DNA of 38,147 nt from an uncultured archaeon (GCA_964486045.1 CAZALK010000027.1:1-38147), one strand, 5' to 3'; positions 2,425 through 34,285 are shown, counted from the first letter of the stretch. Notes: generated by a model not told the origin, from the sequence alone. A program made the numbers and translations.

Positions 2425-3195
2425 ATGAAAATTGTATTCCATGAAAGATATTATAATTCAAGTTATTCAAGGGATCCTGCTGCTGAACCAGGACGTTTAG
2501 AAGGCATCGTTGATTTATTATCCAAAAGAAAAGGATATGAATTTATAAAGCCAGAACCAGCAAAGAAAGAAGATATATTACGAGCTCATTCGGAAAGACA
2601 TTATCGCGCTATTAAGAGAGAGCCATTATTATTTGAATTAGCCTCACTAGCCGCAGGAGGCTCAATTTTAGCTGCCGAAGAAGGATACAATGGAAGTCCT
2701 ACTTTTGCCGTAATTCGTCCTCCAGGGCACCATGCTTCAGCAGACTCCTGTTGGGGATTTTGTTATTTTAACAATATAAGTATAAGCTTGTTGAAATTAT
2801 TTTCAGAAGGAAAAATTGCCTCTGCTTTTGTGCTAGATTTTGATCTTCATACTGGTGACGGTAATTCAAATATTCTAAGAAATAGAAGTGATGGATTTAA
2901 AGTAAGGATATTAAATCCAAATTCAAGCGGTAATATCAATTATGTTAAAGAAGTCGAAAATTTTATGCAAAATTTAAAGGATATTGATATTTTTGTTGCT
3001 AGTGCAGGATTTGATGAAGGAATCGAGGATTGGGGTAATAAATTATATCCTGAAGATTATTATGAATTAGGGAATTTAATGAAAAAATATTCCGAAAAAT
3101 TATGCGATGGGAGACGTTTTGCATTGTTAGAGGGAGGGTACAATCATGATGTATTACCTAATAATGTAGATTCCTTCTCTCAAGGATTTAAATAG
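2425..3195 (+). CDS. Histone deacetylase family (Zn-dependent amidohydrolase) protein, short form
   Basis: RPPGHHA, GFCYFNN, DFDLHTGDG, SAGFD and LEGGY motifs. Confidence 0.9.
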   Translation: MKIVFHERYYNSSYSRDPAAEPGRLEGIVDLLSKRKGYEFIKPEPAKKEDILRAHSERHYRAIKREPLLFELASLAAGGSILAAEEGYNGSPTFAVIRPPGHHASADSCWGFCYFNNISISLLKLFSEGKIASAFVLDFDLHTGDGNSNILRNRSDGFKVRILNPNSSGNINYVKEVENFMQNLKDIDIFVASAGFDEGIEDWGNKLYPEDYYELGNLMKKYSEKLCDGRRFALLEGGYNHDVLPNNVDSFSQGFK

Positions 3196-3226: not shown

Positions 3227-6200
3227 TTATTTTTTCAATCCACTTAATAAGGGATGTGCATCATCACCTTCTTGAGAAGCTGAGATAATTATATTTCTTT
3301 GAATAAGCGTATGTAACCCACCATAAATTTTATCAATTTCTTTTTCATCAATTTCTTCAATTATCCTGTTTATAGTAAATTCTTTACTTATTTTAGTTAA
3401 AGATATTATAACATTAAGAATTCGGGACTCTATTGCTTGCAATTCCCCACCCTTTTTGAGAAATTTCATATAACTCGCATCATCTATTAATTTATATGGT
3501 TCATTGTAATGTAGAAATAAGAATTCATCCAAAATAGTACTAATTTTAGATTCAAATACACTCACATCACCTGTAAAATTGACTATTTTATTTCCTAATT
3601 TAGCATCAATTTCAATCGATAACCAATAGAACTGCTTCTTTAGCCTTTCAGATGAGTGTTCCCTTAGTATTAATAGAGATCTTACAGATTGATAATCACA
3701 TATAAGCAAATGGAAATATTTGAAATTCAATTCGATAATATTTTTGGAATATATTTCTTTACCTTTTTTCTTTTGATCATCTGAAATTGAGCCATTAATC
3801 ATCTGTTCGCCAAATATTGTAATTGCTTGAATAAAGCCAGAAAGGAGGGAATTATTTTTCTGATCAAAATTAGTGTAATTTTTAGTGAAGAATGGTAACC
3901 CGCTAAGTCTTTGAATAAACATTACCGCTTGGATATTTTTCACATCTTTAAAAACCTGGATAGTATTCATAAATAATCGATCTTTCTTTCTCTTGCGTGG
4001 TATAATCACATAACTTCTCAGACTCAAAACACCTAAAACACTAATTACAGGTATTGAAACACCTAAAACTATCAGGAAAAGATAATTTGGAGCAGCTGGT
4101 TTTGAAACGTATATACTTATGGGAAATTTCCGGTTCTTAAATTGAGATCCTTCAACTTTAATTATTAATTCTATAGTATAAGGTCCATGAGCTGATTCTG
4201 GAATTTTTATTTGTGTTTCATATATACCATCCCCCATATTTGTAATTTCCTCATTCAGATACGATAGCCATGAATAAGAAGCATTGGCATTTTCAATCAG
4301 TTTACCAGAACCTTCTTCAGTTAAGATAATACTAATGGAAAGAGTTTCACCAATATATAATTCACGAGTGCCATTAACCCCAGGAGTTTCAACAAGAATT
4401 TCTATTTGATCTATAGTTATCTTAATACTACTTGGGACAATGTTATAATTTTCTTTTTGAGCTGTAATTGAAAAAAAGTAAATATCAACAGGTAAATCGC
4501 CTGGGTTAAAGATTATTGAGTATTGTTGTCCATTTTCGGTTAAAGTTTCAGAAATTCCAGATCCTAATTCAAATAGCTCTACTGTGGCTCCAGAAATAAA
4601 ACTATCGGTTATATTATCCTTATACAATATGGTTATATTTATGGGCTCATTCCCAGGAATAGCGAGAGATTTATCAGATGTTTTGTCTTCTTGGTTTAGA
4701 AATATTTCCAAGTATGTAGTCTTTGGTAAAACATTCACATAAACATTTTGAAAACCAGTTTCATACCCGGGGTGATTAAGTTGTAAGAGAATGGTATGTG
4801 TCGCCAAAGAGAGATCAATCGTGGAAAAGTTTACAATAAATCCGTTCGCAACAGGCATAATGCTATAAAATGAGACCCATGACACATTCAATGTAGCCCC
4901 AGTAATTACATCTTCTGATCCTTCCTCTGTATAATTTACGCTTAAATAGAAACTTCTATTTATATAAACATCAACAATGGTTTCATTCACATTAACAATA
5001 GTAGGTATAGGATGTACAGTTATCGATATGAACCCAAAAGTAGTACCATAATCTGTTTTATTTGCGAAAACTGTAATCGTAAAAGTTTCAGGAATACCTT
5101 GAGTTGGTACGTATCTAGTAGATAGATTGAGTTTGACAGTACCGTTCAAATAATCTGTTACTGTGAAAACTTCATGCCAATCGGTAGTGACATTTACAGA
5201 ACCAGGCAGTAAAGTCCCGGAGAGTGCCCCAGTAACATTTATTCTACTAATAGCATAACTATTAGCGTCAACATTTATAACAGTTGGAGGGATCTCTAAA
5301 GCTAATGGCTGAGTAATTATTTCTAAATGAATTAGATTCGTGATAGATTGATTTATATAATAAATCTTTGAAGCATTAAATGAAAAAAAGTAATCCCCTG
5401 CTGACAAACCACTGAGATCAACATCAGCAACATAAATACCAGACCCAAGATAAGCCATTGTCCCAGAAGCACCATAAGTAGAATTGTAAGTTATTGTGGC
5501 AAAATCGATTGACTGGTTTAAATTATAATCTTTAAATTCAACTTTCATCAAATAGGGTTCTCCAGAAACTTTCACTTCCTCTGGACTTACAGCTGTTAGA
5601 TTTGTTTGATGAGAAACATCAAATTCAACTTGTAAGAAACCAACTTTATCCCTATCAGATTGAGATTGATTATTTGTCCATTCTATTATTGTTTGGTAGT
5701 TACCGACCGACATATTGGGTCCGACGGTAAAATTACCAAAATTAATGTTGTAAGATCCAAGTATTTTACTTTTCTGCCAAAAAATAGTACCATTAGGATA
5801 TTCAATTGTACAATTTGCTTGCGTATTTGCGAATGGGATAGTATCGTTTAATGTTGCATTAATTTGAAATGTATCACCAAGTGTAATACTCGATTCTTCA
5901 TTAAAAGCTGAGCCATTCCAAACAACTAGACTCGCATTTAAGATATAATTCGAACTAATAGCCTCAATCTTCCATAAAGCTTGGTCAAAAACTCCATTAG
6001 GTATAATAAACTCAATAGATCCTGGATCAGTTCCTGTACAACTTTGTATGCGGTTCACATCATACCCATCAAGAATTTGAGTAATATTCCAATCAGCAGG
6101 TTTTGTTATTTCATCTATAGTATTTTTATAATCGCTAGGTATGGTAATGACAAGTTCTGTTTGCCAAATCATAGGTATACCAGTTGTATATAAACTTCCA

Positions 6201-7339
6201 TCAAGTCCACTTATTGATGAATTGATTCTTTTTAGTAGATTGACATTAATATTTATATTTTCTATATAAAAATCATTTATACCAGTGACATTTTGCGAGA
6301 TAGTGAAAATAATTTCCTTATTTGTAGGGTAAGATCTTTCAGTAGCATTATAATAATACCCTTTACCATATGTAGTGTTTATATATGTCTTGTTGGAATT
6401 AAATTCAAGATCTTTGACTCCGACAATATTCATCTGATTTGGCATTGTCCATAAATCAAACTTTACGTTATCAATTTGAAAAAATGTTTCTGTGCCACCG
6501 ACAATTCTTTTCTCACCATGTGAATAAACTCCAACTCTAACAGTAACATTTTCCCCCGGTAAAAATGGTTCATGAAATTCTTCAGTGTCGTATGTCATAG
6601 TAAGGGATTGCCAAGAACCCACTTGAAGTTGTGTGGAAAAATCCCTTGTCCTATTTTTTTCGCTATTTCCTATTATAATGGCTAAATAAGCAGAAAAATT
6701 CTCTGGGTTGTCATCTAAATAATAATCAAAAGAGAGTACTGATAATTTACCGAAACTTAATTCTTCTTGGATTGTAATATTCTGTTCATAATAGCCATAA
6801 TCTCCTTCCAAATAACTATTTTTATCATCTATATATATCTCAACAGATCCTCCAGGATTTCCGGGAGCTTGCCCTTCCTGACCAATATAATCTCCAGGAA
6901 GATTGGTATAATATATCCATCCATGATATATTGAGTCAAAAGTACCATTTATAACTCTATCTTTCTTTTGAGATACACCTTCAAAAGATATATTAATGCT
7001 TTGTGCAACCCAATCTTTCTGTAAAGTGAAACTTACATTAGAAGGAAGGCTTGGGTCAGTATAACTTTCTGTGAAATTTGCATATTGCGAAACTACCAAA
7101 GCTTTTCCATTTGGTTCATTTACGGCCATTTTTAGTTCATTAATTATTAAATCTGAAATTGGATCTAAACTTTGTTCCCCAAATAATTCAATAGTAGAAT
7201 TTGGTGGGTATGATCCATTTATGAAGAATAAAAGGGTAGCTAAAGTAACTAGTATAATTATACCTTTTTTTTCCCCCCCAATCAAATTGAAGTGAGTATG
7301 ATTCATTTGCTTCATACTAGATTTATTGTAACTATACAT
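3227..7339 (-). CDS. Large single-pass surface protein: beta-rich glycosylated ectodomain, TM helix, cytoplasmic longin-like plus winged-helix-like region
   Basis: N-terminal hydrophobic segment; many NxS/T sequons; recurring 'Y..LG.G.Y' and 'A.K..Y' Ig-like strands; TM YLFLIVLGVSIPVISVLGVLSL followed by KRKK; then IQRLSGLPFF...LLSGFIQAITIF. True start may be a later Met. Confidence 0.75.
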   Translation of the reverse strand: MYSYNKSSMKQMNHTHFNLIGGEKKGIIILVTLATLLFFINGSYPPNSTIELFGEQSLDPISDLIINELKMAVNEPNGKALVVSQYANFTESYTDPSLPSNVSFTLQKDWVAQSINISFEGVSQKKDRVINGTFDSIYHGWIYYTNLPGDYIGQEGQAPGNPGGSVEIYIDDKNSYLEGDYGYYEQNITIQEELSFGKLSVLSFDYYLDDNPENFSAYLAIIIGNSEKNRTRDFSTQLQVGSWQSLTMTYDTEEFHEPFLPGENVTVRVGVYSHGEKRIVGGTETFFQIDNVKFDLWTMPNQMNIVGVKDLEFNSNKTYINTTYGKGYYYNATERSYPTNKEIIFTISQNVTGINDFYIENININVNLLKRINSSISGLDGSLYTTGIPMIWQTELVITIPSDYKNTIDEITKPADWNITQILDGYDVNRIQSCTGTDPGSIEFIIPNGVFDQALWKIEAISSNYILNASLVVWNGSAFNEESSITLGDTFQINATLNDTIPFANTQANCTIEYPNGTIFWQKSKILGSYNINFGNFTVGPNMSVGNYQTIIEWTNNQSQSDRDKVGFLQVEFDVSHQTNLTAVSPEEVKVSGEPYLMKVEFKDYNLNQSIDFATITYNSTYGASGTMAYLGSGIYVADVDLSGLSAGDYFFSFNASKIYYINQSITNLIHLEIITQPLALEIPPTVINVDANSYAISRINVTGALSGTLLPGSVNVTTDWHEVFTVTDYLNGTVKLNLSTRYVPTQGIPETFTITVFANKTDYGTTFGFISITVHPIPTIVNVNETIVDVYINRSFYLSVNYTEEGSEDVITGATLNVSWVSFYSIMPVANGFIVNFSTIDLSLATHTILLQLNHPGYETGFQNVYVNVLPKTTYLEIFLNQEDKTSDKSLAIPGNEPINITILYKDNITDSFISGATVELFELGSGISETLTENGQQYSIIFNPGDLPVDIYFFSITAQKENYNIVPSSIKITIDQIEILVETPGVNGTRELYIGETLSISIILTEEGSGKLIENANASYSWLSYLNEEITNMGDGIYETQIKIPESAHGPYTIELIIKVEGSQFKNRKFPISIYVSKPAAPNYLFLIVLGVSIPVISVLGVLSLRSYVIIPRKRKKDRLFMNTIQVFKDVKNIQAVMFIQRLSGLPFFTKNYTNFDQKNNSLLSGFIQAITIFGEQMINGSISDDQKKKGKEIYSKNIIELNFKYFHLLICDYQSVRSLLILREHSSERLKKQFYWLSIEIDAKLGNKIVNFTGDVSVFESKISTILDEFLFLHYNEPYKLIDDASYMKFLKKGGELQAIESRILNVIISLTKISKEFTINRIIEEIDEKEIDKIYGGLHTLIQRNIIISASQEGDDAHPLLSGLKK

Positions 7340-12134: not shown

Positions 12135-12659
12135 CTACCACTCGTTTTTCAAAATAGCAAGTATGATTGAATCATGATATTCACCATTTATGTAGACAGC
12201 TTGTCGTCTAGTTCCTTCTTTTCTAAAACCAACCTTCTCATATGATTTTAATGCTCGAGAATTGAAACTATGAGCTATAAGTTCAATTCGGTTGAGATTT
12301 AATGTATTAAACCCATAATTTACAAGTAATTTCATTGCCTCAGTTCCATAACCTTTACTATGGTAATTTTTCTCACCAATAACAATTCCACATGAACCTA
12401 CTCGGTTTTTCCAATCAACACTAATATCACAATTTCCTATAAGTAATTCTTCATTATTTTCACCATATATAATAATTGAGAAAAAAACATCATTTTCACG
12501 TTTATTTATTGCATTATACCAGTCTTCTTCCATATCTCTAGTGATTGGTCTGAAAATACTAAGATATTGAGTAATCTCAGGGTCAGTCATCCACTTTTGA
12601 AATTGCTCAATATATTCTTTCTTTGGGGGAACAAGTGTTACTCTATCTCCCTTTAACAT
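12135..12659 (-). CDS. GNAT N-acetyltransferase, RimJ/RimL/SpeG-like (paralog 2)
   Basis: KGYGTEAM acetyl-CoA motif, LNRIEL, N.RA..SYEKVGF..EG; start moved to ATG 12659 (MLKGDRV) because it aligns with the paralog's MLKGNNI and removes the overlap. Confidence 0.88.
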   Translation of the reverse strand: MLKGDRVTLVPPKKEYIEQFQKWMTDPEITQYLSIFRPITRDMEEDWYNAINKRENDVFFSIIIYGENNEELLIGNCDISVDWKNRVGSCGIVIGEKNYHSKGYGTEAMKLLVNYGFNTLNLNRIELIAHSFNSRALKSYEKVGFRKEGTRRQAVYINGEYHDSIILAILKNEW

Positions 12660-12751
12660 AAAAAGAAAAAGTCTGTGTTTGAATAAATAATTAATCAAAT
12701 ATCTTAGGAAATAGAAAAAATTAGGATTAAAATGGATCTTTAAAATGTAAT

Positions 12752-13300
12752 TTAACTTAATTGGTTTTTTTTCATCCATTCCTCTTGTAGAATACTCATA
12801 AAAATGGTATCGTGATATTCTCCATTGATAAACACAGCTTGTCTCATTCGTCCTTCTTCTACAAATCCTATTCTATTATAAGATTTTATAGCTCTATTAT
12901 TGAATTCATAGACGCGTAATTGAATGCGGTTTAGATTCACAGTTTTGAATCCATAATTTAATAATAATTCCATTGCTTCTGTTCCATATCCTTTACCTTG
13001 ATATTCTTTTTCTCCTATAGTGATTCCTACTTCCCCAACTCGATTTTTTAAATCTATAGCATGCAACCCACAATTTCCAATAAGCTTTTCTCCACCATTT
13101 TCTTCAGGAATAATAATCGCAAAATGAAAATTATCGTTTCGATTCTTTAGGTTGTCAAACCAATCTTCCTCCATCATGCGAGTAAGTGGTCGAAAATGGT
13201 TTAAATATTGAGTTATTTCTGGATCATTGAACCACTTGAGATAAGAATCAATATATTCTCTTTTAACTGGACCAAGTACTATATTGTTTCCTTTTAACAT
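12752..13300 (-). CDS. GNAT N-acetyltransferase, RimJ/RimL/SpeG-like (paralog 1)
   Basis: QGKGYGTEAM, LNRIQL, N.RAIKSY..IGF.EEG; start moved to ATG 13300 (MLKGNN), with a TATA-like TATTTAAA about 20-27 bp upstream. Confidence 0.88.
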   Translation of the reverse strand: MLKGNNIVLGPVKREYIDSYLKWFNDPEITQYLNHFRPLTRMMEEDWFDNLKNRNDNFHFAIIIPEENGGEKLIGNCGLHAIDLKNRVGEVGITIGEKEYQGKGYGTEAMELLLNYGFKTVNLNRIQLRVYEFNNRAIKSYNRIGFVEEGRMRQAVFINGEYHDTIFMSILQEEWMKKNQLS

Positions 13301-13379
13301 TAATGAGAAGAATTTGTATTTAAATAAGAAACTTACTGAAACGTCGAATAACAAAAAAGTAGGGGAAAAAGTAGGATAT

Positions 13380-16292
13380 TTAAAAAGTGATATTATACCT
13401 ACGAGCCGCGAATTTCACGCTTTCAAATGAAACAATACAAATTAATGAGATCAAAAAGCATACTAACCAATCTAGACCTGTTAAATACATGAACATAAAA
13501 TTTAATCCACGTTCAGCAAGCCATACTTGGACTCCCGGGATATACATCAACAGCAAAAAGATAAAAAATAAGAAACCAATTATAAGATACATCCTTTTTG
13601 TGCTATCTTCTATTAAACTTCTAATTAATGACTTATTTGGACGTCTAATCTGAAATATGAGAAAGGATTCACAGAAAAATAATGTGACCATAAGCATAGT
13701 TAATGTTTTTGCTTCTCTTAACCCAATTCCAAATGTGTTTAAATCGTCATTTACGGTTGTGAAAAGATATTCACCATTAAGAGCACCGAAATTAAAATTT
13801 TCAGTAAAAACGGGATAAGTTCCGCTAAAAGTTATATAGTAAACAACAATCATGCTTATAGCTAGTAGTATTCCAAATATTATCATTAAAATAAAAATAT
13901 TTTTAGATAGGATTTCCTCTGAGTCTCGTGGCTTTTCTTTCATCACATCGTCAGATATTGAATCAAATGTAAGAATTAAACCTGGAAACATATGTAGGGT
14001 TATTGATAGAAAAATCCATTGATAATAAAATGCTTCATTTAAAAAATAAGGCAAATTTAAAACAATTGCTAAGAAAAATTGAACTATACCTTCAAAAACG
14101 TTTATGCAAATATAGAAAATTACCACAGCGCGAATTTTTGCAAATATTCCTCTTCCTTGATTAATTCCTGTAACGATAGAACTAAAAGAATCGTCAGAGA
14201 TAACCATATCTGCTGCTTCTTTAGCAACGTCCGTTCCTGTAATGCCCATAGCTACTCCAGCGTCAGCCATATTCAATGCTAAAGCATCATTAACACCATC
14301 CCCCGTCATAGCAACAACTTTTTCTTGATCTTGGTATTTTTGAACAATATCTTGCTTATGTTCGGGGCTAACTCTGGCAAAAACTTTAATCTTATTAAAC
14401 TCTTCAAAATTTTTGACATTTTTGACTTCCTTGCCTTGAAGATGCGTATCACTTTCTGATGTTACAATTGAGATTTGTGAAGCAATAGCTTTTGCAGTAG
14501 CGGGAGAATCTCCGGTGATCATAACAACATCTACGCCAGCGGCATGACATTGTTCTACTGATTCCTTCACTCCTTCTCTCGGGGGATCTAAAATTGTAAC
14601 AAATCCTATGAAAGTTAAATTAGATTCACTTTCTTTCCTCCCCTCATCACCCTCAGGAGGAATCTCATTCATTTCTTTATAACATAAGCTTAGAATTCTA
14701 TAACCTTGATTAGCATAAATGTTGACGATTTCCATTACCTTTTCTTTAATTTCTTGATTGAATTCTATTTCCTTATCAGTATAGATTATTTTAGTGCATA
14801 ATGATGTTAAAACTTCACTCGCTCCTTTAGTAAAGGCAACGTATACATGATCTTTTTTGTATAGTTTTGTCATTCTTTTTAATGTTGAATCAAAAGGATA
14901 TTCTGTGATTGATTCATATTCATCGAGTAGATAATCTCCCATTCCTTTTTGGAATAATACCATTAAAGCTCCTTCTGTAGGGGATCCAATTACACCCCAT
15001 TGGTATAATGTTTTTCCAGACAACTCAATTTCATTTTTAACAAGCGCAGAATTGTTATTTAAAAAGCCCGCTGTTAAAAGTAACTTAAGATGAGGATAAT
15101 CTTCAATGTGTTTAATAGAAACATGATCCTTTGGATCATCCATTAAGATGATTTCTCCGTCAGGAGAATAACCACTCCCAGTAACTCTAAAAATAGAACC
15201 ATTTGCCCAAACATGTTGAACTGACATTTGATTTTTAGTTAAAGTACCTGTTTTATCAGAACATACTACACTAATACGCCCTAAACTATCAACAGAGGCA
15301 AGATTTCTTATAATAACGCCGTGATGAGCCATAGCAAGGACACCTGTTATTAAAACAATAGTTACAAGTAAGGGAATATTTATAGGCATTATATCAAGCG
15401 CGGAATTTAAACTTTCTACAATTTCCAATCGAGTAAATCCACTAGCAATCCACATAACCATTAAAGTAACAAGCCAAAATACGAAAACTGCCAACCCTAA
15501 CCATTTGCCAAAATTGTTCATTTTTTGTCGGATTGGAATTTCACTTGTACCGGCTTCTTCTAAACCATGAGAAATTTTCCCAATTTCAGTATTAGGGCCT
15601 ATTTTTACTACAATAGACTTTCCTGATCCTGTGGTAATGTAAGTTCCAAAAAATACCATGTTATACCGATCACCAATAGAAATTTCTTTTTCCTTTATTG
15701 GTTCTCCATTTCTTTCTTTTTCTACGGGTTCACTTTCACCTGTTAGTGATGCTTCATTAATTTCGAGGTTAAATCCTTCAATTATTCTTGCATCTGCAGG
15801 AATCTTATCTCCTTGATTTAAAGTTAATAAATCTCCTACAACGATCTCTTTAGTAGGAATCTCTAGTTTTACTCCATCTCTAATAATAGTAGATGTAGGT
15901 GCTGTTAACTCCCTCAAAGCATTTAATTTTTTGGTGGCTCGAAACTGTTGGATAATAGCAACTAAACAATTTAAGAAAACAATTCCCAAAGTTACTAATA
16001 ATAATGTCAGTTCCCCCTCATCAGCTAAAAGCCATGCTATAAATAAGATTAGAGAGCCTACAAGGTATATTACGATTAACCAGTTAAAAAGAGGGGCTAA
16101 ATATATCTTAATGAAGCCTTTTGAGGCCTTTGGGATTTCATTGGGTCCTTTTTCCAACAACCTTTTTTGAGCTTCTTTCTCAGTTAAGCCTTTTTCTGGA
16201 TCAGTCTGAAGGTCTTTGTAAATTTTCTCTAATTCCTGATCATAAAATTGTTCTTCTAATTCTTGATTATAAAATTGTTCTTCTGTAGCCAT
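13380..16292 (-). CDS. P-type ATPase, P2A-like scaffold with atypical TM4 (PINIP) and TM6 (LH)
   Basis: PAD, LTGES, CSDKTGTLT, KGA, DPPR, MITGD, FARVSP, TGDGVNDA motifs; multi-pass membrane domain. Confidence 0.95.
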   Translation of the reverse strand: MATEEQFYNQELEEQFYDQELEKIYKDLQTDPEKGLTEKEAQKRLLEKGPNEIPKASKGFIKIYLAPLFNWLIVIYLVGSLILFIAWLLADEGELTLLLVTLGIVFLNCLVAIIQQFRATKKLNALRELTAPTSTIIRDGVKLEIPTKEIVVGDLLTLNQGDKIPADARIIEGFNLEINEASLTGESEPVEKERNGEPIKEKEISIGDRYNMVFFGTYITTGSGKSIVVKIGPNTEIGKISHGLEEAGTSEIPIRQKMNNFGKWLGLAVFVFWLVTLMVMWIASGFTRLEIVESLNSALDIMPINIPLLVTIVLITGVLAMAHHGVIIRNLASVDSLGRISVVCSDKTGTLTKNQMSVQHVWANGSIFRVTGSGYSPDGEIILMDDPKDHVSIKHIEDYPHLKLLLTAGFLNNNSALVKNEIELSGKTLYQWGVIGSPTEGALMVLFQKGMGDYLLDEYESITEYPFDSTLKRMTKLYKKDHVYVAFTKGASEVLTSLCTKIIYTDKEIEFNQEIKEKVMEIVNIYANQGYRILSLCYKEMNEIPPEGDEGRKESESNLTFIGFVTILDPPREGVKESVEQCHAAGVDVVMITGDSPATAKAIASQISIVTSESDTHLQGKEVKNVKNFEEFNKIKVFARVSPEHKQDIVQKYQDQEKVVAMTGDGVNDALALNMADAGVAMGITGTDVAKEAADMVISDDSFSSIVTGINQGRGIFAKIRAVVIFYICINVFEGIVQFFLAIVLNLPYFLNEAFYYQWIFLSITLHMFPGLILTFDSISDDVMKEKPRDSEEILSKNIFILMIIFGILLAISMIVVYYITFSGTYPVFTENFNFGALNGEYLFTTVNDDLNTFGIGLREAKTLTMLMVTLFFCESFLIFQIRRPNKSLIRSLIEDSTKRMYLIIGFLFFIFLLLMYIPGVQVWLAERGLNFMFMYLTGLDWLVCFLISLICIVSFESVKFAARRYNITF
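16230..16283 (-). repeat. In-frame 27-bp tandem duplication at the ATPase N-terminus (EEQFYNQEL / EEQFYDQEL)
   Basis: Two adjacent 27-nt units (16230-16256 and 16257-16283) differing at 2 positions. Confidence 0.9.
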
Positions 16293-16559
16293 ATGAAACC
16301 ATTTAATTTTTTTTTATTTTAAATCAAGTATCAAATCAATCTGATAACATAACAATAATAATAATAACTTTTAACTTATTACATTTTGAAACCAGATTCT
16401 GCAATTTTTTATATTTGTAATAGAAAATTCCACTTATAATGGTCCAAAGTGTTAATTCTGATGGTTCTCTGGGGTGATTATTTGAAATTTTGAGGGTTAT
16501 TAGCTATTTTATGGTATCTATTTCTTGTTAAATAATAAAATCCGATAAGTTTGTCTTAT

Positions 16560-17099
16560 TTAACTCCATAATTGTCTAAGTTCTTTTCGATTAATCCTAG
16601 AAACCTGATCAACTGAAAAAAGGATAAAATTACAACATTTATTTTCCCAAGCTCTAGTTTTCACGTATTGTTTAAGATCAGTATTTAAATCAAAACCACA
16701 CAATTCTTCACACATTACTGATCCAAATTCTTCTTCGAACCTTCTACTAAATTTCACTGCTTTACCATATACTTTTGGGACATTTAAATCTTTTATTTTG
16801 TCTTGTCCTCCCGAGATAATCCCAATAGCCGCAATAGCACCAGAAATCGCGCCACTAGGACCTTTCCACCCATTCTTTCCCTTAAAATGAACCAAATCAC
16901 TGAATGGAATGGCTAGGTTGTTAAAGTAAACATTTTTTAAATCTTTTAAATTTAAAACTTCTATGATACTGTTAAGAGTATCAGCAGCACAACTATTTCC
17001 AATATTTTTTCCTAAAGGTGGGAGTACATTTTCTAATTCCATCAACTTTTCTTCAAACCGTTTAGTGATATCTGCTTGTGGAGCAGTAGAATTTGTCAA
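16560..17099 (-). CDS. C-GCAxxG-C-C family putative redox-active protein, possibly degenerate
   Basis: SCA, GP(S)GAISGA, FEEEFGSVMCEELCG and KCC pattern; TTG start. Confidence 0.75.
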   Translation of the reverse strand: MTNSTAPQADITKRFEEKLMELENVLPPLGKNIGNSCAADTLNSIIEVLNLKDLKNVYFNNLAIPFSDLVHFKGKNGWKGPSGAISGAIAAIGIISGGQDKIKDLNVPKVYGKAVKFSRRFEEEFGSVMCEELCGFDLNTDLKQYVKTRAWENKCCNFILFSVDQVSRINRKELRQLWS

Positions 17100-17278
17100 G
17101 ATAAGCTTAAAAGAAAGCTCATTCTATTTAAATTTAACGATGATCTGAGAAAAAATTTGAAATTTCTTCGGTACAACACAGATGTCGTAATGAGTTAAAA
17201 TATGTGGAGTTGAGAGGGAAGTAGAGACAAAAGAAAAAAGAATTTATTAGCAGGAAAATTAGTGAGTTGATTAAATAT

Positions 17279-20134
17279 TCAAAAATAGATATTTCTTTTA
17301 CGAGCGGAGTATTTATACATTTCTATACCAATTATCCCTGGTAAAGCTAGTAAAATGCATATTATCCAATCTGAGGCACTTAAGAACATGAAATTTAACT
17401 GTAAATCTAACCCTAAAACAGTGTTTATATTATAATTAACTATATTTGAAAAACAGATAACAAGGACATGTAACCCTAATGTAAAAAAACAAATAATAAA
17501 CAGTGAGCTGTTAAATTCTTCTTTTATACCCTTGTACATAGATTTATTAGGTCGTCTAAAAGACCAAATAAAATTGGTTTCAACAATGAAAAGCGTTGTG
17601 ATAAACATAGTTCTTGATTTTTGAGCCAATTCTTGTCCTGAAACGATATAGCTGATATTTGGATTTAAATTCCATTCATTTAATGGTATAATCCCTCCCA
17701 AAGTTAATTGTAAGGCTAACACTAATCCTAAACCCATCAAAAAAGCTTGAATTAATAACATTACCCACATGTTCTTATTTAAGATCTCTTCTTCATCTCT
17801 TGGTGGTTCTTGCATAATATCCTTTGGATGAGAATCAATTACTAGTGCCAAAGAGGGAAGAGAGTGTACTATACCAAAAATATAAATGTGTTGCCATTCA
17901 GAACTAAATAGTTCAAATGTAGGAATAAATTCATATGTAAAGAATATAATAGCTTCCATGATATTCAAACATATAAAGAAATAGATTATTACCCTAATTT
18001 TTGAAAAGAGACCGCGCCCAACTTTAACTCCTTTTTCAATAGATGTGAAATTATCATCAGAAATGACCATATCCGCTGTTTCCTTAGCAACATCTGTTCC
18101 AGTTACCCCCATTGCGATACCTGCATTTGCTAATTTTAGAGCGAGTGAATCATTTATGCCGTCTCCAGTCATTGCTACGACTTGATTTTTGCTCTGGTAA
18201 TTACTTACAATGATTTCCTTGTCAGAAGGCTCTACTCGGGCAAATACTGTAATTTTTTTAAATTCATTTTCATCAAAATCTTTAATTTGTTTTCCTTCTG
18301 CTACGAGATCTCCTTCCTTGTAAATCCCCATCTGAGAGGCGATAGTTTTCGCTGTTGCGGGATGATCACCCGTAATCATAATAACCTGTATTCCTCCAGA
18401 TTGACATTCAGCTACAGATTGCTTAACCCCACTCCGGGGAGGATCCATAATTGAGACAAATCCTAAAAATACCAGGTTACTTTCAATATTCTCACGTTTT
18501 GGTTGATTAGCATCAGTTAACTTTTTATATGATATTGCCAATGTTCTAAATCCCTGATTTGCTCGATTCCTTATGTCTCCTAAAATTTTTTCTTTGTTAC
18601 TATCATCAAATTTTTTAATTATACCATTTATTTCAATCTCAGATGTTATCGTAATAATATTTTCAGGTGCTCCTTTAGAGAAAACAAATAATTCCTTATT
18701 ATTTTCCTCTAAACTATAGATCGAGCTCATACGCTTTAATTCAGAACTAAAAGAAAACTCTTTAATAAGAGAATATTTATTTTTTACATCATATGGGATA
18801 TAACCTGCCTTTTCAGATAAAACTATTAGAGCTGCTTCTGTAGGGGAACCCAAAGCGCGTCTTACTGCCATTTCTCTTTTACCTCCCACTCTAACTTTAA
18901 CATCTTCGAAAACCAGTTGAGCATTATTATTCATAACTATTGAATCTATAAATTTCTGGAAAGTAGAATTATCATTTAAATTAATCAATTCTCTATTAAA
19001 AGATATTTCCCCTTCACCATCATAACCAGAGCCACTTACATCATACTCTTTTTCATTTATCCAAAATTTTTCGACTGTCATTTCATTTTTTGTAATTGTT
19101 CCCGTTTTGTCCGAACAAAGAACAGACACACGTCCTAATGATTCAATCGCAGATAAATTTTTTATAATCACCCCATGTTGAGTCATGCTTAAAACACCTG
19201 TTATAAGAACCAGAGTGCTTAACAAAGGTAAATTTATGGGGAGTACATTCGTAGATCTTAATATAGAGCTTACTAAAGCATTGCTAATTTCCGATTGAAT
19301 AAAATTCAGTTCATTAGCTAAAATAATGAATTTATAAGAAACTAATATGATTAAATTAATTATAACTATTATTCCTAGGATGAATCCTAATCTATTCAGT
19401 TTTTTGGTTAGTGGAATCTCTTCAATACTTCCCATTTCATTTAAAGTAACAGAAATTTTTCCTATTTCTGTATTTACACCAGTACCAGTTATTAACGCTT
19501 TAGCCCTCCCAGTAAGTGCATACGTTCCCATGAAGATCATGTTTGATTGTTTTTGGATGGGAACATCATTTTCATGAAGAGGTTTATTATTTTTTTCAAC
19601 TGGTTCACTCTCACCGGTTAATGGTGCTTCGTCTATTGTCAAATTAACTTGATTTACTACTCTACCGTCAGCGGGAACCTTGTCTCCTTGACTTAATATT
19701 ATAATATCTCCAGGAACTAATTCTCTATTTGGAATTTCGGATTGATCTCCATCTCTTAAAACTGTTGCTTTTAAAGCTGAAATCTGTCGTAAAGATTCTA
19801 GTGCTTTTTGTGCTCTAAACTGCTGGACAATTACAGTTGCAGAATTTATAACTACAACGGTAAATGTTATTGCAGTCTCACCAGGGGAACCCAAAATAAC
19901 TACAATAATTCCTGTTACAAGTAAAATTAAGATTAAGAAGTTAAAAATTGGCGCAAAATATATTTTCCAGATTGATTTTTTAATTTTTGGTAACTCATTA
20001 TACCCATATTTTTGATAATCTTTCTCTAACTCAGAAGATTTTAATCCTTGTTCGAGATTAGTGTTAAAGTCTCTTAACAATTCGTCGAGTGATTGATGAT
20101 AATAAGTTCTATTAGAGTATTTTACTTCTAACAT
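17279..20134 (-). CDS. P-type ATPase, P2A-like scaffold with atypical TM4 (PINLP) and TM6 (VH)
   Basis: PADGR, LTGES, CSDKTGTIT, KGAPE, DPPR, MITGD, TGDGINDS motifs. Confidence 0.95.
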   Translation of the reverse strand: MLEVKYSNRTYYHQSLDELLRDFNTNLEQGLKSSELEKDYQKYGYNELPKIKKSIWKIYFAPIFNFLILILLVTGIIVVILGSPGETAITFTVVVINSATVIVQQFRAQKALESLRQISALKATVLRDGDQSEIPNRELVPGDIIILSQGDKVPADGRVVNQVNLTIDEAPLTGESEPVEKNNKPLHENDVPIQKQSNMIFMGTYALTGRAKALITGTGVNTEIGKISVTLNEMGSIEEIPLTKKLNRLGFILGIIVIINLIILVSYKFIILANELNFIQSEISNALVSSILRSTNVLPINLPLLSTLVLITGVLSMTQHGVIIKNLSAIESLGRVSVLCSDKTGTITKNEMTVEKFWINEKEYDVSGSGYDGEGEISFNRELINLNDNSTFQKFIDSIVMNNNAQLVFEDVKVRVGGKREMAVRRALGSPTEAALIVLSEKAGYIPYDVKNKYSLIKEFSFSSELKRMSSIYSLEENNKELFVFSKGAPENIITITSEIEINGIIKKFDDSNKEKILGDIRNRANQGFRTLAISYKKLTDANQPKRENIESNLVFLGFVSIMDPPRSGVKQSVAECQSGGIQVIMITGDHPATAKTIASQMGIYKEGDLVAEGKQIKDFDENEFKKITVFARVEPSDKEIIVSNYQSKNQVVAMTGDGINDSLALKLANAGIAMGVTGTDVAKETADMVISDDNFTSIEKGVKVGRGLFSKIRVIIYFFICLNIMEAIIFFTYEFIPTFELFSSEWQHIYIFGIVHSLPSLALVIDSHPKDIMQEPPRDEEEILNKNMWVMLLIQAFLMGLGLVLALQLTLGGIIPLNEWNLNPNISYIVSGQELAQKSRTMFITTLFIVETNFIWSFRRPNKSMYKGIKEEFNSSLFIICFFTLGLHVLVICFSNIVNYNINTVLGLDLQLNFMFLSASDWIICILLALPGIIGIEMYKYSARKRNIYF

Positions 20135-20241: not shown

Positions 20242-21249
20242 TTAGAGTTGAAATTCTTGAGGTTCCCCAATTATATCTCTTAAGGTGTGGTACTTTTTTC
20301 TAATTGTTGTACTTGAGAATTTGGTGTACTTTTCGATGAGACTTTGAGTAAAAATCTTGCGATTTTCAAACATTTGACCGATATAGTAGATAAGTCCGGC
20401 AACAAACGCTTTATAATTCAAACTCTGTATTTGCTTATAAGAAATCTGATTTAAAATTTTATCAGCGATTAATTGCATAGAAATCTTTTTTTTTTCAAAG
20501 TCAGAAACTTTTTCAAAGAATAGTTTAACTTCTTCATAGGGGATACTATTTACATCTTTTTGAAAAACAACTTTTATTTTTTCTTTAATATCTTTTTCTA
20601 ATTCAGAAATGCTTTTTTTCTCTAGTAACATACGTTCAGTAACTTTTACTTTTAACATCGCGTTTGTAATCATTTTCTTATTAATTTTATGACCGAGTTC
20701 TTTTGCCACTTTAATGAATTCATCAATCCTTATATTTGTTGTGTCCTTTATTTTTACCCATATGATTGCGAGAAAAATTATAACCATATTTTGATAGTTA
20801 TGGCGATGATTTTTATTAAATCGTAAATAGATGTCCCGAATTTCTCGATATTTTACGTTATCAATAGTCAAACCTATTCCATGGCTCTTTAGAAGTTCAA
20901 TTGTCTTTTTTTGTTCTGTGAAATCAGATTCATAATCTCTAAACCATTTTTCTAATGTTTTTAACCGCTCATATTTCTCCTTGATTACTGGGTTCTGTAA
21001 TGCTTTTGAATCACTAACTCTTATCTTTCTTTCATAATCGATCTGTGAATCTGGATAGAAATCACTAACTGGTTTTTCAAAGTTAAGGCTCTGTTCTAAG
21101 GGAATGTCGTTAGATTTTTTTAATTTATAATATTCCTTAATAGAAAATCTCTTACCACAATCTTGACAATAATAAAATCCTTTCCCTCTCTTTACATTCT
21201 TATGATGACACATTGGTTGTACTGTTATAATTTTACTCTTTTCTTTCAA
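20242..21249 (-). CDS. Divergent TFB/TFIIB-like protein (Zn ribbon plus cyclin-fold repeats)
   Basis: CHH...CQDCG Zn ribbon; YERLKTLEKW resembles the B-linker; C-terminal AFVAGLIY...TQ..I.......TIRKKY resembles the second cyclin repeat and HTH of TFB. Confidence 0.65.
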   Translation of the reverse strand: MKEKSKIITVQPMCHHKNVKRGKGFYYCQDCGKRFSIKEYYKLKKSNDIPLEQSLNFEKPVSDFYPDSQIDYERKIRVSDSKALQNPVIKEKYERLKTLEKWFRDYESDFTEQKKTIELLKSHGIGLTIDNVKYREIRDIYLRFNKNHRHNYQNMVIIFLAIIWVKIKDTTNIRIDEFIKVAKELGHKINKKMITNAMLKVKVTERMLLEKKSISELEKDIKEKIKVVFQKDVNSIPYEEVKLFFEKVSDFEKKKISMQLIADKILNQISYKQIQSLNYKAFVAGLIYYIGQMFENRKIFTQSLIEKYTKFSSTTIRKKYHTLRDIIGEPQEFQL

Positions 21250-22101: not shown

Positions 22102-23040
22102 TTATGTAAGCTTATTTTTAATCTGTTTAGCGCGACTTCGGAGAGTTACCTCAGTGATTTTAGCAATATCGGCAACTCTTGATTGTGTTTTTCGAATAGA
22201 GCCATTTTTTGCTGCAATATAGATACACGCAGCTGCTAATCCTTTAGGATCTTTACCTGTTCTCTGTAATCCATTTCTTGAGGCATCTTTCAGCATATTA
22301 ATGGCATTCTTCTGAACTTGAATAGGTAAATCTAATTCATTTCCAAATCTAAAAACTAAGCATTCCGCAGTGATAGGCTGATATCGAAGCTTTAATTCAG
22401 GTAAAACTTCTCTTATAATCATAGCAAGACTTCTATGAACTGTTCTCCTTGGTGTCAGAGACGCTTCACATACTTCATCTAGTAGCCGAGGAAAATCATG
22501 CACACGAATCGCGGCGTATAGAGATCCTGCTATAAATCCATTGATCGAGCGTCCCATTGTTAATTTCTTCTTAGCTACGATACTATAAATTTTCCACGCG
22601 GTTTCTGATATGTATTCAGGCACATTTAACTTACTCGTAAGCATCTTTAATTTGGGTTTTGCCTCCCAGAAATTACGTTCAATGCTTGATATCAATGAAT
22701 TCTGAATTTTTGATAATCGTGAGAATAATGCCTGTTCTTTAGCTCCTATACTCTTCCCTTTGCTGTCTGTCTTGGTATTTGGGAGCATAGTACGTGGTCC
22801 AAAGTCTCTCCAACGAGGTTCAGTTCGACGGCGGGTCTGTATCTCTTCAACAGTATATGCCCGTCTCTCATTCCCCACAAAAGTCCTTTCAAAAATTAAG
22901 CCACAGTTTATACAAATTTCATTTCCATCTCTAGATTCGACAAAAGGATTGTTACAACAATGAGTTTGAGAATTATCAGCTTCATTTTTGTTATCATTTC
23001 TCAAAAAGGTACGATATTGTTCGTTCATATTATTTACCAA
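22102..23040 (-). CDS. tfb: Transcription initiation factor IIB (TFB)
   Basis: CC...CINCG Zn ribbon; ERRAY B-reader-like segment; ERN; MGRSI, AGSLYAAIR, GKDPKGLAAACIY, TQ..VA..A.ITEVTLRSR. Confidence 0.95.
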   Translation of the reverse strand: MVNNMNEQYRTFLRNDNKNEADNSQTHCCNNPFVESRDGNEICINCGLIFERTFVGNERRAYTVEEIQTRRRTEPRWRDFGPRTMLPNTKTDSKGKSIGAKEQALFSRLSKIQNSLISSIERNFWEAKPKLKMLTSKLNVPEYISETAWKIYSIVAKKKLTMGRSINGFIAGSLYAAIRVHDFPRLLDEVCEASLTPRRTVHRSLAMIIREVLPELKLRYQPITAECLVFRFGNELDLPIQVQKNAINMLKDASRNGLQRTGKDPKGLAAACIYIAAKNGSIRKTQSRVADIAKITEVTLRSRAKQIKNKLT

Positions 23041-25030: not shown

Positions 25031-25588
25031 TTATACAAATTTTAGTAATCCTCTTCTCATCATTCTTATCTCTATCACCAATATAACAGTTACTCCACTG
25101 ATAATGAGGATAAGAGGTAACAACCCTATAATCAGGCCAATTTGATATATTAACTTCCCCAATCTTAGAAAAAAAGTGACAAGAACATAAATAATAAACC
25201 CAAATAAGAAAATTAGTTTCTTTTTCTTATAATAAGATATAGAATAATGCCAACTAACAATGATTAGGATATTTGAGCATAAAATGAATATATATTCAAC
25301 ATAAAATATCTTTCTAATAACATAATCAAAGCTTACTATGAATAAAGTGATTACAATTAAACAAATTAATATAAAACTCGCTAAAAAATTCTCTCTAATA
25401 AGATTCAACTCAAGTTTCAAACATAAAATAAATGAAAGTATTACGAGGTTTATAATTAGGAGAAAATTAAATATTAGCTTATCCTGAAACAAAAAAAAAT
25501 CAGAAACAACTGAAAATATCAATCCTAAAAAAAAAAGTAACAATCCAAGAAAACGAATATATATTTCCCGTTTAGCAAGCACTCCCAT
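25031..25588 (-). CDS. Hypothetical membrane protein (about 6 TM)
   Basis: Highly hydrophobic 185-aa ORF convergent with AOR. Confidence 0.7.
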   Translation of the reverse strand: MGVLAKREIYIRFLGLLLFFLGLIFSVVSDFFLFQDKLIFNFLLIINLVILSFILCLKLELNLIRENFLASFILICLIVITLFIVSFDYVIRKIFYVEYIFILCSNILIIVSWHYSISYYKKKKLIFLFGFIIYVLVTFFLRLGKLIYQIGLIIGLLPLILIISGVTVILVIEIRMMRRGLLKFV

Positions 25589-25787
25589 ATTATTTTTAAT
25601 CTAAATAATTTTAAAAACATATGCAGATTTTCTTGATGTGACAATATGGGATTTTTTTTCTTGTTTTTAATAATTACAAATGTTAATCTCTTTGATTATC
25701 ATTAAATACCCAGAGTATTGTTAGTATTAATAATGAAAAATTATTTTGAAAAACTTCATTTTTACTAATTGTAAGGTGGAATAAATT

Positions 25788-26729
25788 ATGAGTGTAAATG
25801 ACATAGTAAATTTTGCTTTAGCTGGTGCAGGAGCTACTGCTGGGATCTACGGTGCGATTCGCGCTTGGTTATCAAACAAAAAAATGAAACAAATTGAGGA
25901 AGAAAAATTATCATCGAAGCTAAATATAAATTTCAATTATGACCTAATCAAGTCGGGTGACACTAAAATGTGTAGAGGGGTTGTTAAATGGTCTAACTTA
26001 GGATTAACGAATATAAAAATAGTTAGATTAAACATTGATATTCGTGATCGTGAAGATGAGTTGCGTGAGAGCTATTTACCATCAGGAAATAGTGTAAATT
26101 CCTCATTTAATCCTTATTCGAAAAAGGTTGAAAAAATAGAACTTATGGCTGTAAATAATCATAAATTAGTAAACTTTTCGAACGATCTCAAGAAGGGAGA
26201 AGTAAGAATTTTTCAAGATGACCCAATTTATGGATTAAAATTATCGGATCGGCAAAAAAGAGAATTAAAAGAAAGCGGAGAAGAAGTTGATATGGACGTG
26301 CTAGAGATAAAAAGAAGTATTACCCAATATATAGATAGTAAGATAATTAGATTGCAAGAAGTATTTTCAAGTGAAGAAAAAAAAGGCTCTAGAAAAAATC
26401 TAAATCTCTTTTTGTTTAAAGAGACGTTGGTACGAGAATTACGTGGTATCCAATTATTTCCTCAAGAATTTAAAGATCAAGAATTTTTTCTAAAATACGA
26501 CGGTGAAGGCATTGTTTATTTAAATGTAGAAAACGCTACAATTCGAATTCAATTAAAAAATATTAACGCCATCGAGGAATATAAATCTATAGGAGTTGAA
26601 ATTATAGATGCTGAAGAACTCTCTGATCTATTAATTGAAAAATATAGAAAGCTTTTAAAACTAATTATTTCTCCAAGCGCATTTGAACTTCATAAACATA
26701 AATCGAACTATTTGATTTATTTGAAATAA
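25788..26729 (+). CDS. Hypothetical protein with N-terminal membrane anchor
   Basis: N-terminal Gly/Ala-rich hydrophobic helix followed by a charged soluble domain; AAGGTGG SD-like motif upstream. Confidence 0.75.
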   Translation: MSVNDIVNFALAGAGATAGIYGAIRAWLSNKKMKQIEEEKLSSKLNINFNYDLIKSGDTKMCRGVVKWSNLGLTNIKIVRLNIDIRDREDELRESYLPSGNSVNSSFNPYSKKVEKIELMAVNNHKLVNFSNDLKKGEVRIFQDDPIYGLKLSDRQKRELKESGEEVDMDVLEIKRSITQYIDSKIIRLQEVFSSEEKKGSRKNLNLFLFKETLVRELRGIQLFPQEFKDQEFFLKYDGEGIVYLNVENATIRIQLKNINAIEEYKSIGVEIIDAEELSDLLIEKYRKLLKLIISPSAFELHKHKSNYLIYLK

Positions 26730-28465: not shown

Positions 28466-28969
28466 TTAAACGGTAGCTCCACCTATTATTCCTAATATTC
28501 CTCCTCCAATTGCTAAATAGAAACCAATTCCAAGACCCCAATCCGCCATTCCCGGAAAGCTACCAAACAAGAGATTCTCTCCAGGCAGCCATACAGTAGC
28601 CATAGTTTCAAATACACCTATTTTAGTAATTATCTCAAACAAAAGTAGGGTCGGGCCAGCTAAAAAAATGACACCTCCCAGAATTCCGAATACCTTCCTT
28701 TCTGTTAAACCAGCAATAAAAGTTAGTACACTACCACCTAAAATTAGCATAATTACAATCATCAAGATGATATCTTCAGCGAATGTAATTGGGGATGGAT
28801 TGATGCCCACTTCTCCTGATGTTACTCCAAAACCTCCAAGGTATACTCTCACCATCCCCGGTGCATCAAGTCTCCATAGACAAATTATTCCGGGCGCAAT
28901 ATAATATAGAACCACACTAAGCACTCCTAATACACCACCAATTATAGCAAAAACTTTACCTGCTCCCAT
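28466..28969 (-). CDS. Gly-rich 4-TM membrane protein (paralog A)
   Basis: Four hydrophobic GxxxG-rich helices; clear paralog of 29362-29868. Confidence 0.85.
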   Translation of the reverse strand: MGAGKVFAIIGGVLGVLSVVLYYIAPGIICLWRLDAPGMVRVYLGGFGVTSGEVGINPSPITFAEDIILMIVIMLILGGSVLTFIAGLTERKVFGILGGVIFLAGPTLLLFEIITKIGVFETMATVWLPGENLLFGSFPGMADWGLGIGFYLAIGGGILGIIGGATV

Positions 28970-29057
28970 TAAAATAACCTTTTACATATGTTATTAAGTT
29001 TTTAATTATGTTTTGTATTTTTGACAAATTTTACAATTTTAGGTAAAATGTTATCTA

Positions 29058-29108
29058 ATTATTAAAAAAGGTTTCTATAATATAATAGAAGATTTTGTTA
29101 TTCTTCTA
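29058..29108 (-). promoter_or_regulatory. BRE-TATA plus upstream palindromic operator (copy 1)
   Basis: Minus strand GAAACC-TTTTTTAATAA; TTCTAT-N6-ATAGAA overlapping TAGAAGA-N9-TCTTCTA (29086-29108). Confidence 0.6.
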
Positions 29109-29150
29109 CTTAGATTTGAATTAACTATTCAATAAGAGAGAAGTTTTTTT

Positions 29151-29216
29151 CCTAAAGGAAAAGATTTTCAAGATGAGATAATGAATTTATCTATGCCGAG
29201 ATCTTTTATAAATTGG
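29151..29216 (+). pseudogene. nfo: Duplicated 3' fragment of nfo
   Basis: Reads PKGKDFQDEIMNLSMPRSFIN versus nfo PKGKDFQDDIMNLALLRSLIN. Confidence 0.85.
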
Positions 29217-29361
29217 TTATTTTTCCATGTCAAACCAAAAGGGACTTTTATCATCTACAAGTGCTATTCAGATTTTCTTTATTGTTCCCACACTTAATTC
29301 TATAGAATTTTTCATCTTATTTCTAATTCCTAAGAAAAATAAAAAAAAGAGTTTTATTTGA

Positions 29362-29868
29362 TTAAACGGTAGCTGCACCTATTATTCCTAATATTCCTCC
29401 CCCAATTGCTAAATATGAACCAATTCCAAGACCCCAATCTGCCACTCCTGGTATGTTACCCGCCAAGAGGTTCACATCACCCATAAGTGGAATTAATATG
29501 TCTCCGAAAACACCCAATTTAGCGATTAACTCGACTAAAAGTAGGGTTGGGCCAGCTAATAAGATGATCCCTCCCAGAATCCCGACAGTTTTACTTTCTG
29601 CTACACCAGCTATAAAGGTTATTACTCCGCCACCAATAATTAGCACACTTACAATCATCAAAATGATATCTCCGGAGTATTGAGGTGAGAACGGAACCCC
29701 GAAATCCTCTCCTGACCATGCTCCAAAACCTCCAAAGTATACTCTCACCAACAACATCGGATCATCAAGTCTCCAAAGACTAAGTATTTCAGGGGCAATA
29801 TAATATAGAACCACACTAAGCACCCCTAATACACCACCAATTAAAGCAAAAACCTTACCTACTCCCAT
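29362..29868 (-). CDS. Gly-rich 4-TM membrane protein (paralog B)
   Basis: Paralog of 28466-28969; shares LWRLD, VRVY.GGFG, ADWGLGIG.YLAIGGGILGIIG. Confidence 0.85.
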   Translation of the reverse strand: MGVGKVFALIGGVLGVLSVVLYYIAPEILSLWRLDDPMLLVRVYFGGFGAWSGEDFGVPFSPQYSGDIILMIVSVLIIGGGVITFIAGVAESKTVGILGGIILLAGPTLLLVELIAKLGVFGDILIPLMGDVNLLAGNIPGVADWGLGIGSYLAIGGGILGIIGAATV

Positions 29869-30116: not shown

Positions 30117-30512
30117 TCATTCCAGCTTAAACCAGACCGAAGATTTATCGTTTACAAGTCCATTATAATTTGTGACTAATTCTTCAAATTCTGAGATATC
30201 TCTTAGCGTTTCAAATTCAATACAGTTATTGTCATAATCATAAATGTATCTAACATTGGGATCATAAGAGTGATTTATGAATTGGCTAATGCTTAATGAA
30301 ATAGCGTTTCTAAATTCAGAATCATGCTTTGGATCCTCCCAAACATAGCAATAGTTATAAATCACAGTTTTCTTAATTTTCTTATAATCCTTATTTGGTA
30401 AAGGGATAACATGTGCTACATCAATAATTGTCCCTTTCTTAATTTCTTTCTTTGCGAAGACCCCCTTTCCTTTTTTTGGAGAAATAAACTTAACTTCAAT
30501 TAAATCATTCAT
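30117..30512 (-). CDS. SET domain protein-lysine N-methyltransferase (stand-alone, prokaryotic/vSET-like)
   Basis: KGKGVFA, FINHS..PN, EELVTNY motifs; ATG 30512 is preceded by a GGTGG SD-like motif (ORF track start 30533 also possible). Confidence 0.9.
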   Translation of the reverse strand: MNDLIEVKFISPKKGKGVFAKKEIKKGTIIDVAHVIPLPNKDYKKIKKTVIYNYCYVWEDPKHDSEFRNAISLSISQFINHSYDPNVRYIYDYDNNCIEFETLRDISEFEELVTNYNGLVNDKSSVWFKLE

Positions 30513-30610
30513 AGATTCCACCAACATTTTCATTCAATGAGGATATTTCTCCCATCAATATCTGCTTCAGCCAATATTTATGGTTCATCCTAATTATCAT
30601 GAGTAATTAT

Positions 30611-33894: not shown

Positions 33895-33944
33895 TATTAT
33901 AGCAAATGATAAGATAAAAAGGAATATTTACTATCATCAACATT

Positions 33945-34196: not shown

Positions 34197-34255
34197 AGTG
34201 TAATAAAATAATTATGGTAATTTAAATTTTTAAATTATCATTGATTTCGTGGAAT

Positions 34256-34275: not shown

Positions 34276-34285
34276 GATAATTAAT

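Follow-up and report, generated by a model that had tools for sequence, protein, structure and literature searches.

A 38,147-nt stretch of DNA from an uncultured archaeon (GCA_964486045.1, CAZALK010000027.1:1-38147), here called the window, encodes on its minus strand two P-type ATPases, paralog A (13380-16292, 970 aa) and, upstream of it, paralog B (17279-20134, 951 aa). Both belong to a widespread and apparently undescribed archaeal P-type ATPase family with a rebuilt Ca2+ site, of which A is a core member and which is marked by PIN[IL]P in transmembrane helix 4 (TM4) and a His in TM6. The translated open reading frames (ORFs) confirmed the PINIP of A (15372-15386) and the PINLP of B (19226-19240) reported in a preliminary description of the locus, and DKTGT, TGES, KGA and GDGxND, which it had listed as intact, were complete in both proteins together with TGD. 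The A, N and P domains and the 10-TM layout were also present, assigning both proteins to the P-type ATPase superfamily. The phosphorylation site is D346 in A, preceded by R339 in LGRIS (15243-15278, minus strand, as are all features of A and B), and D342 in B, with R335 (19097-19132). The actuator motif is TGES, the P2/P3 type and not DGET, in A (15732-15743) as in B (19607-19618). The paralogs, described before as well diverged, share 40% identity. A pseudogene or inactive pump was ruled out by the full ORFs and by catalytic residues that are invariant across 110 aligned sequences, and a frameshift or chance motif by the conservation among orthologs of P-[IL]-N-[IL]-P, found in 120/120 close homologues of A.

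In the membrane, TM4 of A carries D300, at the SERCA A305 position, and P303-I304-N305-I306-P307 in place of SERCA PEGLP (15372-15395), and TM4 of B carries N296 and P299-I300-N301-L302-P303 (19226-19249). The TM5 residues N731 and E734 of A (14091-14102) correspond to SERCA N768 and E771, with no P4-type Lys; those of B are N724 and E727 (17954-17965). In TM6, the SERCA N796 and D800 positions are occupied by S763 and H767 in A (13992-14006) and by F753 and H757 in B (17864-17878), while TM8 contributes E875 in A, equivalent to SERCA E908 (13668-13670), and E852 in B (17579-17581). The TM1/TM2 entry path of A has N70, where canonical P2 pumps usually have Asp, and Q115-Q116 instead of the canonical QE (15945-16085).

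Residues were then counted in 301 family sequences (290 core members), a sample enriched in close relatives of A, and in 156 canonical sequences, all mapped on SERCA by alignment. E309 was replaced in 301/301 family sequences; the Ile seen earlier at this position in A and B is I/L/V in the 290 core members and F/W/L/V in basal members. The G310 position is Asn in 292/301, the N796 position is S/F/T/Y/A, with Asn not seen among the common residues, the T799 position is mostly hydrophobic (L/V), and the D800 position is His in 300/301. In contrast, the site I ligands showed stricter conservation than those of canonical archaeal P2A: N768 was retained, E771 was found in 300/301, and E908 in 295/301, or 284/290 core members vs. 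56/156 canonical sequences. Toward the cytoplasm, E109 has become Gln and the TM1 acid Asn, so that the entry acids of TM1 and TM2 fell from 0.83 and 1.89 per segment in canonical sequences to 0.03 and 0.02 in the family, leaving the entry path without negative charge. A further diagnostic residue of the family is an Arg that precedes the phospho-Asp by seven positions (299/301 vs. 3/156); the N-domain Lys is kept, and the SERCA S766 position is Cys in 216/290 core members. The Asn or Asp that the preliminary description placed three residues before the TM4 Pro is present in A (D300) and B (N296), but is not family-wide: this -3 residue is D in 179, N in 55, S in 18, T in 11, K in 9, G in 8 and A in 7 of the 290 core members. 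Asp marks the A lineage, in all A orthologues, Asn much of B, and S/T/K/G/A other lineages. One Asgard family shows the TM4 variants PITIP, PIMIP, PIAIP and PISIP, the last nearly identical to the PISL of P4 ATPases.

In SERCA, the roles of E309, N796 and D800 in Ca2+ binding are established. Since all three are replaced, canonical Ca2+ binding is judged impossible on residue content, as had been proposed. The TM4 change first noticed is real but only part of the remodelling, in which TM6, TM1 and TM2 were rebuilt as well. Read from these alignments, Ca2+ site II is gone, and the N/E/H/E cluster at the old site I is under selection. The TM6 Asp has been called omnipresent in Ca2+ efflux pumps (PMC10654040).

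The scaffold itself is of P2 type. The best hidden Markov models for A and B were the PMR1- and SERCA-type ones, with every P2 subfamily model below its cut-off (TIGR01522, 490 bits vs. 798), and scores were 365 and 337 bits for the P3A model TIGR01647 (cut-off 615.5), 232-245 bits for the P5 model TIGR01657 (cut-off 618), and 103 and 108 bits for the P4 model TIGR01652 (cut-off 431). The best sequence matches in the PDB were LMCA1, SPCA1 and SERCA, and the AlphaFold (AF2) model of A, with a predicted local distance difference test score (pLDDT) of 88, had SERCA, SPCA and LMCA1 as its closest folds (vs. 9evc: Z 33.9, root-mean-square deviation (rmsd) 5.6, 831 residues aligned). A separate model of TM5-10 (pLDDT 87) matched SPCA1 8iwp with Z 21.6 and rmsd 2.1 over 210 aligned residues. 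No P4 entry was among the top 50 of any fold search, which leaves similarity to P4 possible. The spacing from the TM4 Pro to the phospho-Asp is 43 in the family, as in P2, vs. 53 in Drs2 and 47 in Neo1. A and B are SERCA/SPCA-like P2-type P-type ATPases.

Named homologues of A and B were overwhelmingly from Promethearchaeota/Lokiarchaeota, which makes the host an Asgard archaeon. A query with TM5-10 of A gave family-level matches (E<=1e-15; canonical pumps scored 1e-4 to 1e-10) in about 180 of 251 Asgard genomes, covering 12 Asgard families, to which two further families were added; representatives were confirmed by motif. The family thus occurs in most large Asgard lineages, often as several copies, and the B-A tandem is typical, being present in most genomes of the window's own genus and family; several smaller Asgard families have canonical pumps only. 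A search of 1.8 billion proteins returned about 40 family clusters or fragments in the top 150, followed by canonical P2A. In a basal group, TM4 reads AVAAIP[FLWV]NFP with canonical upstream residues, which shows that the motif moved away from PEGL in steps. An Asgard-only range was ruled out by another basal branch, with PWSFP and the TM6 His, present in about 14 of 201 Thermoplasmatota genomes, so that the subfamily first suggested as an undescribed Asgard one stands as a clade of its own but not as an exclusively Asgard one. Two apparent bacterial members were examined: the record 'Nanopelagicaceae bacterium', which has a Loki-type tandem, groups within the Asgard phylum of the genome collection and was ruled out, and 'Aerophobetes bacterium', which has this tandem too and was found in 1/31 genomes of its phylum with Loki-like synteny, is probably a misbinned contig. 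Viral contigs contained no close family member (best 35%).

Core, basal and Thermoplasmatota members formed one clade with 100/100 support (739 columns), distinct from canonical P2A, P2B, P2C-like, P3A and P3B. P4 (fungal Drs2 and Neo1), P5A and P1B sequences were added to the trees, with an almost entirely fungal P4/P5 sampling, P5B and KdpB left out, and long branches that limit topology tests. The family was never placed inside P4. In early trees under the LG model, P4 joined the stem of the family and P5 fell within it, but this attachment vanished or moved with consensus-aligned columns, added P2B or changed sampling. In mixture-model trees the family stood among P2A-like pumps, P4+P5 branched outside, and the backbone was weakly supported. 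Because the signal rests on few sites, such as R339 and Y465, and the placement shifts with the alignment, an attachment of P4/P5 to the family is not claimed. Topologies were compared by fixed-topology approximately unbiased (AU) tests, which gave p 0.58-0.78 for P4+P5 outside, 0.40-0.67 for P4+P5 as sister to the whole family, 0.44-0.75 for P4+P5 as sister to the core, and 0.053-0.117 for the core joined by P4 only. The slight preference among these topologies depends on few sites. That the family is specifically sister to P4 by itself is thus disfavoured, while the trees neither support nor reject the family as sister to P4+P5.

The gene neighbourhood of the family was compared across genomes. 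In the window, a C_GCAxxG_C_C-family gene (Pfam; 16560-17099, minus strand, 179 aa) lies between B and A; its motif reads PSGAISG, the namesake Cys being apparently replaced. This slot is usually empty: among 68 measurable B-A pairs, 51 had no insert, 9 had a gap of 450-900 nt, mostly filled by the C_GCAxxG_C_C gene, and 8 a longer gap, which held a VTT/DedA gene in 7. In the genomes of about 11 relatives, from two genera of the window's own family, the place of the C_GCAxxG_C_C gene is taken by this VTT (PF09335) gene, on the same strand as B and A; with the same VTT query, its orthologue was not found in the window's own genome. A different VTT paralog (31-39% identical to the former) is convergent to the basal member, adjoining it or a few kb away, in 3/3 genomes of another genus. 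In the Thermoplasmatota branch, a GT4 glycosyltransferase gene precedes the ATPase in 12 genomes, a PF06695 gene lies directly downstream of it in 7, and a UDP-glucose 4-epimerase gene is present in 6; the genomes with this operon are probably a single lineage. As both PF06695 and VTT are assigned to the DedA superfamily (10.1101/2020.12.18.423352), DedA-superfamily neighbours recur as three unrelated genes in three lineages, once within a glycosyltransferase-epimerase operon. As a control, 162 canonical P-type loci gave one weak DedA match, although long flanks were available for only 86 of these loci. Bacterial DedA members are reported to be transporters of lipids or of the carrier lipid undecaprenyl phosphate (PMC10127716, PMC10193950).

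The other neighbours of the tandem, namely two GNATs, a luciferase-like oxidoreductase and DUF362 downstream and TFIIB-like genes upstream, are kept only within the window's own family and gave no functional hint. The GNATs are two tandem RimJ-type acetyltransferases (12135-13354, minus strand) directly downstream of A, and a GNAT occupies this place in 69 related loci. Upstream, a 335-aa protein (20242-21249, minus strand) combines a Zn-ribbon-like CxxC pattern at its N terminus with a C-terminal stretch resembling TFIIB; it had no Pfam match above noise and, with a true TFIIB gene (22102-23040) at a distance of about 850 nt, is possibly a divergent TFB paralog. Elsewhere in the window, a histone deacetylase-family gene (2425-3195, plus strand), a stand-alone SET-domain gene (30117-30533, minus strand), a 1370-aa ORF with no Pfam match (3227-7339, minus strand) and further ORFs of 167-556 aa with no Pfam match (25031-26729, 28466-29868 and 32263-35956) were observed. 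The six DKTGT-bearing P-type ATPases of the genome comprise, besides A and B, two canonical PEGL pumps (P2A) and two P1B pumps, with P3A absent among them. The two P2A copies (C1:990451-993294 and C6:134600-137434) look near-identical in all TM segments compared, and may reflect a recent duplication or a strain mixture (contamination estimate 7.8%).

Taking the sequences and the gene neighbours together, we tentatively favour the reading that this archaeal subfamily of P2-derived ATPases has given up Ca2+ pumping, a lipid or lipid-linked amphiphile being its most likely substrate. The cargo would be a glycolipid, a polyprenyl-phosphate carrier or a phospholipid, moved between leaflets through the usual E1/E2 phosphoenzyme cycle, which the pump is presumed to follow. 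As in P4 flippases, its headgroup would take a route past the unwound TM4 that lies behind a hydrophobic gate. Within the emptied site, the His and the two Glu would form a built-in ion-pair core, comparable to the TM5-6 hydrogen-bond network of P4s, and the pump would act in a flippase-like way while standing outside P4. In P4s, the Ile of PISL gates the headgroup (PMC4937031, PMC11460456), and by analogy the gate Ile of the family with its following polar residue may mirror PISL. Support comes from the destruction of site II in all members, the loss of the entry acids and the recurring DedA-superfamily neighbours. The lipid cargo suggested in the preliminary description thus remains the leading hypothesis, but mostly on gene-neighbourhood evidence and not on the TM4 motif from which it was drawn. 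Several observations weigh against it. The near-invariant buried Glu-His-Glu triad (TM5/6/8) resembles an ion or proton site and keeps such mechanisms alive, the TM5-10 model is most like SERCA/SPCA, and the family has no TM5 Lys. The TM4 likeness is also less specific than it first appeared: the Ile does match flippases, but Ile/Val with a second Pro and TGES is the P3A pattern too (PMC4937031); the 'N-h-h-P' flippase match is lineage-specific, as the -3 residue varies; and the -3 Asp of all A orthologues, at a place taken by Asn in P4s, would repel the phosphate of a lipid. Moreover, most family loci, including the window, have no DedA neighbour (51/68 B-A pairs are directly adjacent), most Asgard neighbourhoods are unrelated, the VTT neighbour of the basal member is absent in the four other genera with that branch, and PF06695 itself is a family with no assigned function. 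The DedA association was spotted post hoc among genomes whose kin are not independent, and is therefore a lead of moderate weight.

The triad would fit other cargoes. It is possible, though unlikely, that the family is a proton or proton-coupled pump converged on P3A, with a hydrophobic TM4 gate and the His relaying H+ via E771/E908; the near-invariance of these three residues, the TM4 and actuator pattern of P3A (PVALP in Asgard P3A) and the lack of P3A among the six DKTGT ATPases of the genome all agree with this. However, P3A requires a TM6 Asp and a TM5 Arg (PMC10654040), both kept in Asgard P3A, whereas His and Glu stand at these positions in the family; in the trees the family is placed away from P3; 26/151 Asgard genomes carry separate, true P3A H+-ATPases that score above the cut-off of TIGR01647, in some cases as tandem copies; and the DedA and glycosyltransferase neighbours are left unexplained. 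Prokaryotic P3A were placed mainly in methanogens by a 2023 review (PMC10654040). No more probable is a single-cation pump using SERCA site I only (N768, E771, His, E908) for a transition metal (Zn, Ni, Co, Mn or Fe) or a monovalent ion (K+, Na+ or NH4+), which would account for the strictness of these ligands. A His with two Glu is a typical transition-metal ligand set, to which the Cys at the S766 position, or in paralog A the Asp at the A305 position as a carboxylate, could add, but neither of the latter is family-wide. In P2 pumps, moreover, ions reach site I past E309 and an acidic TM1/TM2 funnel, both lost here; no metal-homeostasis neighbours recur, and the genome encodes P1B pumps of its own as well as two canonical P2A pumps.

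Least probable of the alternatives, and rather remote, is a P5-like pump that would carry an organic cation (polyamine) or else a transmembrane helix. The AU tests did not reject P4+P5 as sister of the family, G-R-[IV] before DKTGT is common to the family, Spf1 and Neo1, and two buried Glu could bind an amine. Against this, PPxLP and P5-type extensions are absent (950-1000 aa, P2 layout), the TIGR01657 scores are below the cut-off, and the P5 placement shifted with the alignment. Returning to lipid transport, the stronger proposal that these pumps are ATP-driven lipid flippases of archaea and also the prokaryotic sister group, still extant, of the P4+P5 ATPases known only from eukaryotes is improbable; if true, it would capture the stage, before the rise of eukaryotes, when the ion gate was lost from a calcium-pump scaffold, and the family would mark the origin of the eukaryotic membrane asymmetry pumps.

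In the databases, family proteins are named simply Ca2+- or cation-transporting ATPases, a label that hides a clade with a conserved transport site of its own. A 2023 review lists P1-P6 without mention of Asgard archaea, expects more prokaryotic families and calls flippase evolution an enigma (PMC10654040); the pumps given in a survey of Asgard transporters are limited to putative Ca2+, Mg2+ and Cu ones (PMC7997004), and an earlier attempt to find Spf1-like proteins in Asgard sequences was uninformative (PMC10456885). No description of the clade was found in the literature searched, outside which most subscription papers lie. If the family flips lipids, archaea have a P-type flippase; if its cargo is H+ or a metal, it represents a new use of SERCA site I without the E309 gate.

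Compared with known systems, true P4, P3A, P5 and P6 membership was ruled out on defining residues, and P2A (SERCA, SPCA1/PMR1 and Listeria LMCA1) gave the best matches in sequence and structure. The family shares with P2A TGES, KGA, DKTGT, GDGxND, the spacing of 43, N768/E771 and E908, but differs in PEGL replaced by PIN[IL], the loss of N796, the mostly hydrophobic T799 position, D800 replaced by His, and the lost TM1/TM2 acids. With P4 (Drs2, Neo1 and ATP8A) it has in common a hydrophobic E309 position followed by a small polar residue and the absence of the TM6 Asp, and with Neo1 also the TM8 Glu and LGRI before DKTGT. The preliminary description was right in not regarding A and B as true P4s: they have TGES rather than DGET, with T at that position in 286/290, the second Pro is kept, the TM5 Lys (K873)/Arg position is I/L/V/T, the spacing and TIGR01652 scores differ, and between PIN[IL]P and the P[IV]SL with upstream Asn of P4 only the Ile matches. 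TIGR01652 matches above cut-off were found in 0/61 Asgard genomes, and CDC50 was not found in 151 Asgard genomes, in a search in which no positive control gave a match; this beta-subunit belongs to P4A and P4C only, and P4B needs none (PMC10654040). P3A (AHA2, Pma1 and archaeal P3A) resemble the family in P-[IV]-x-h-P of TM4 with TGES, while the family has TM6 His and TM5 Glu, a separate clade, a P2-type N domain and about 130 additional aa. Finally, P6 (Mycobacterium CtpE) is likewise prokaryotic and has lost the TM6 Asp (PMC10654040), but CtpE keeps PEGL, has Ile in TM6 and no N-domain Lys, whereas the family has lost PEGL, carries His in TM6 and retains the Lys.

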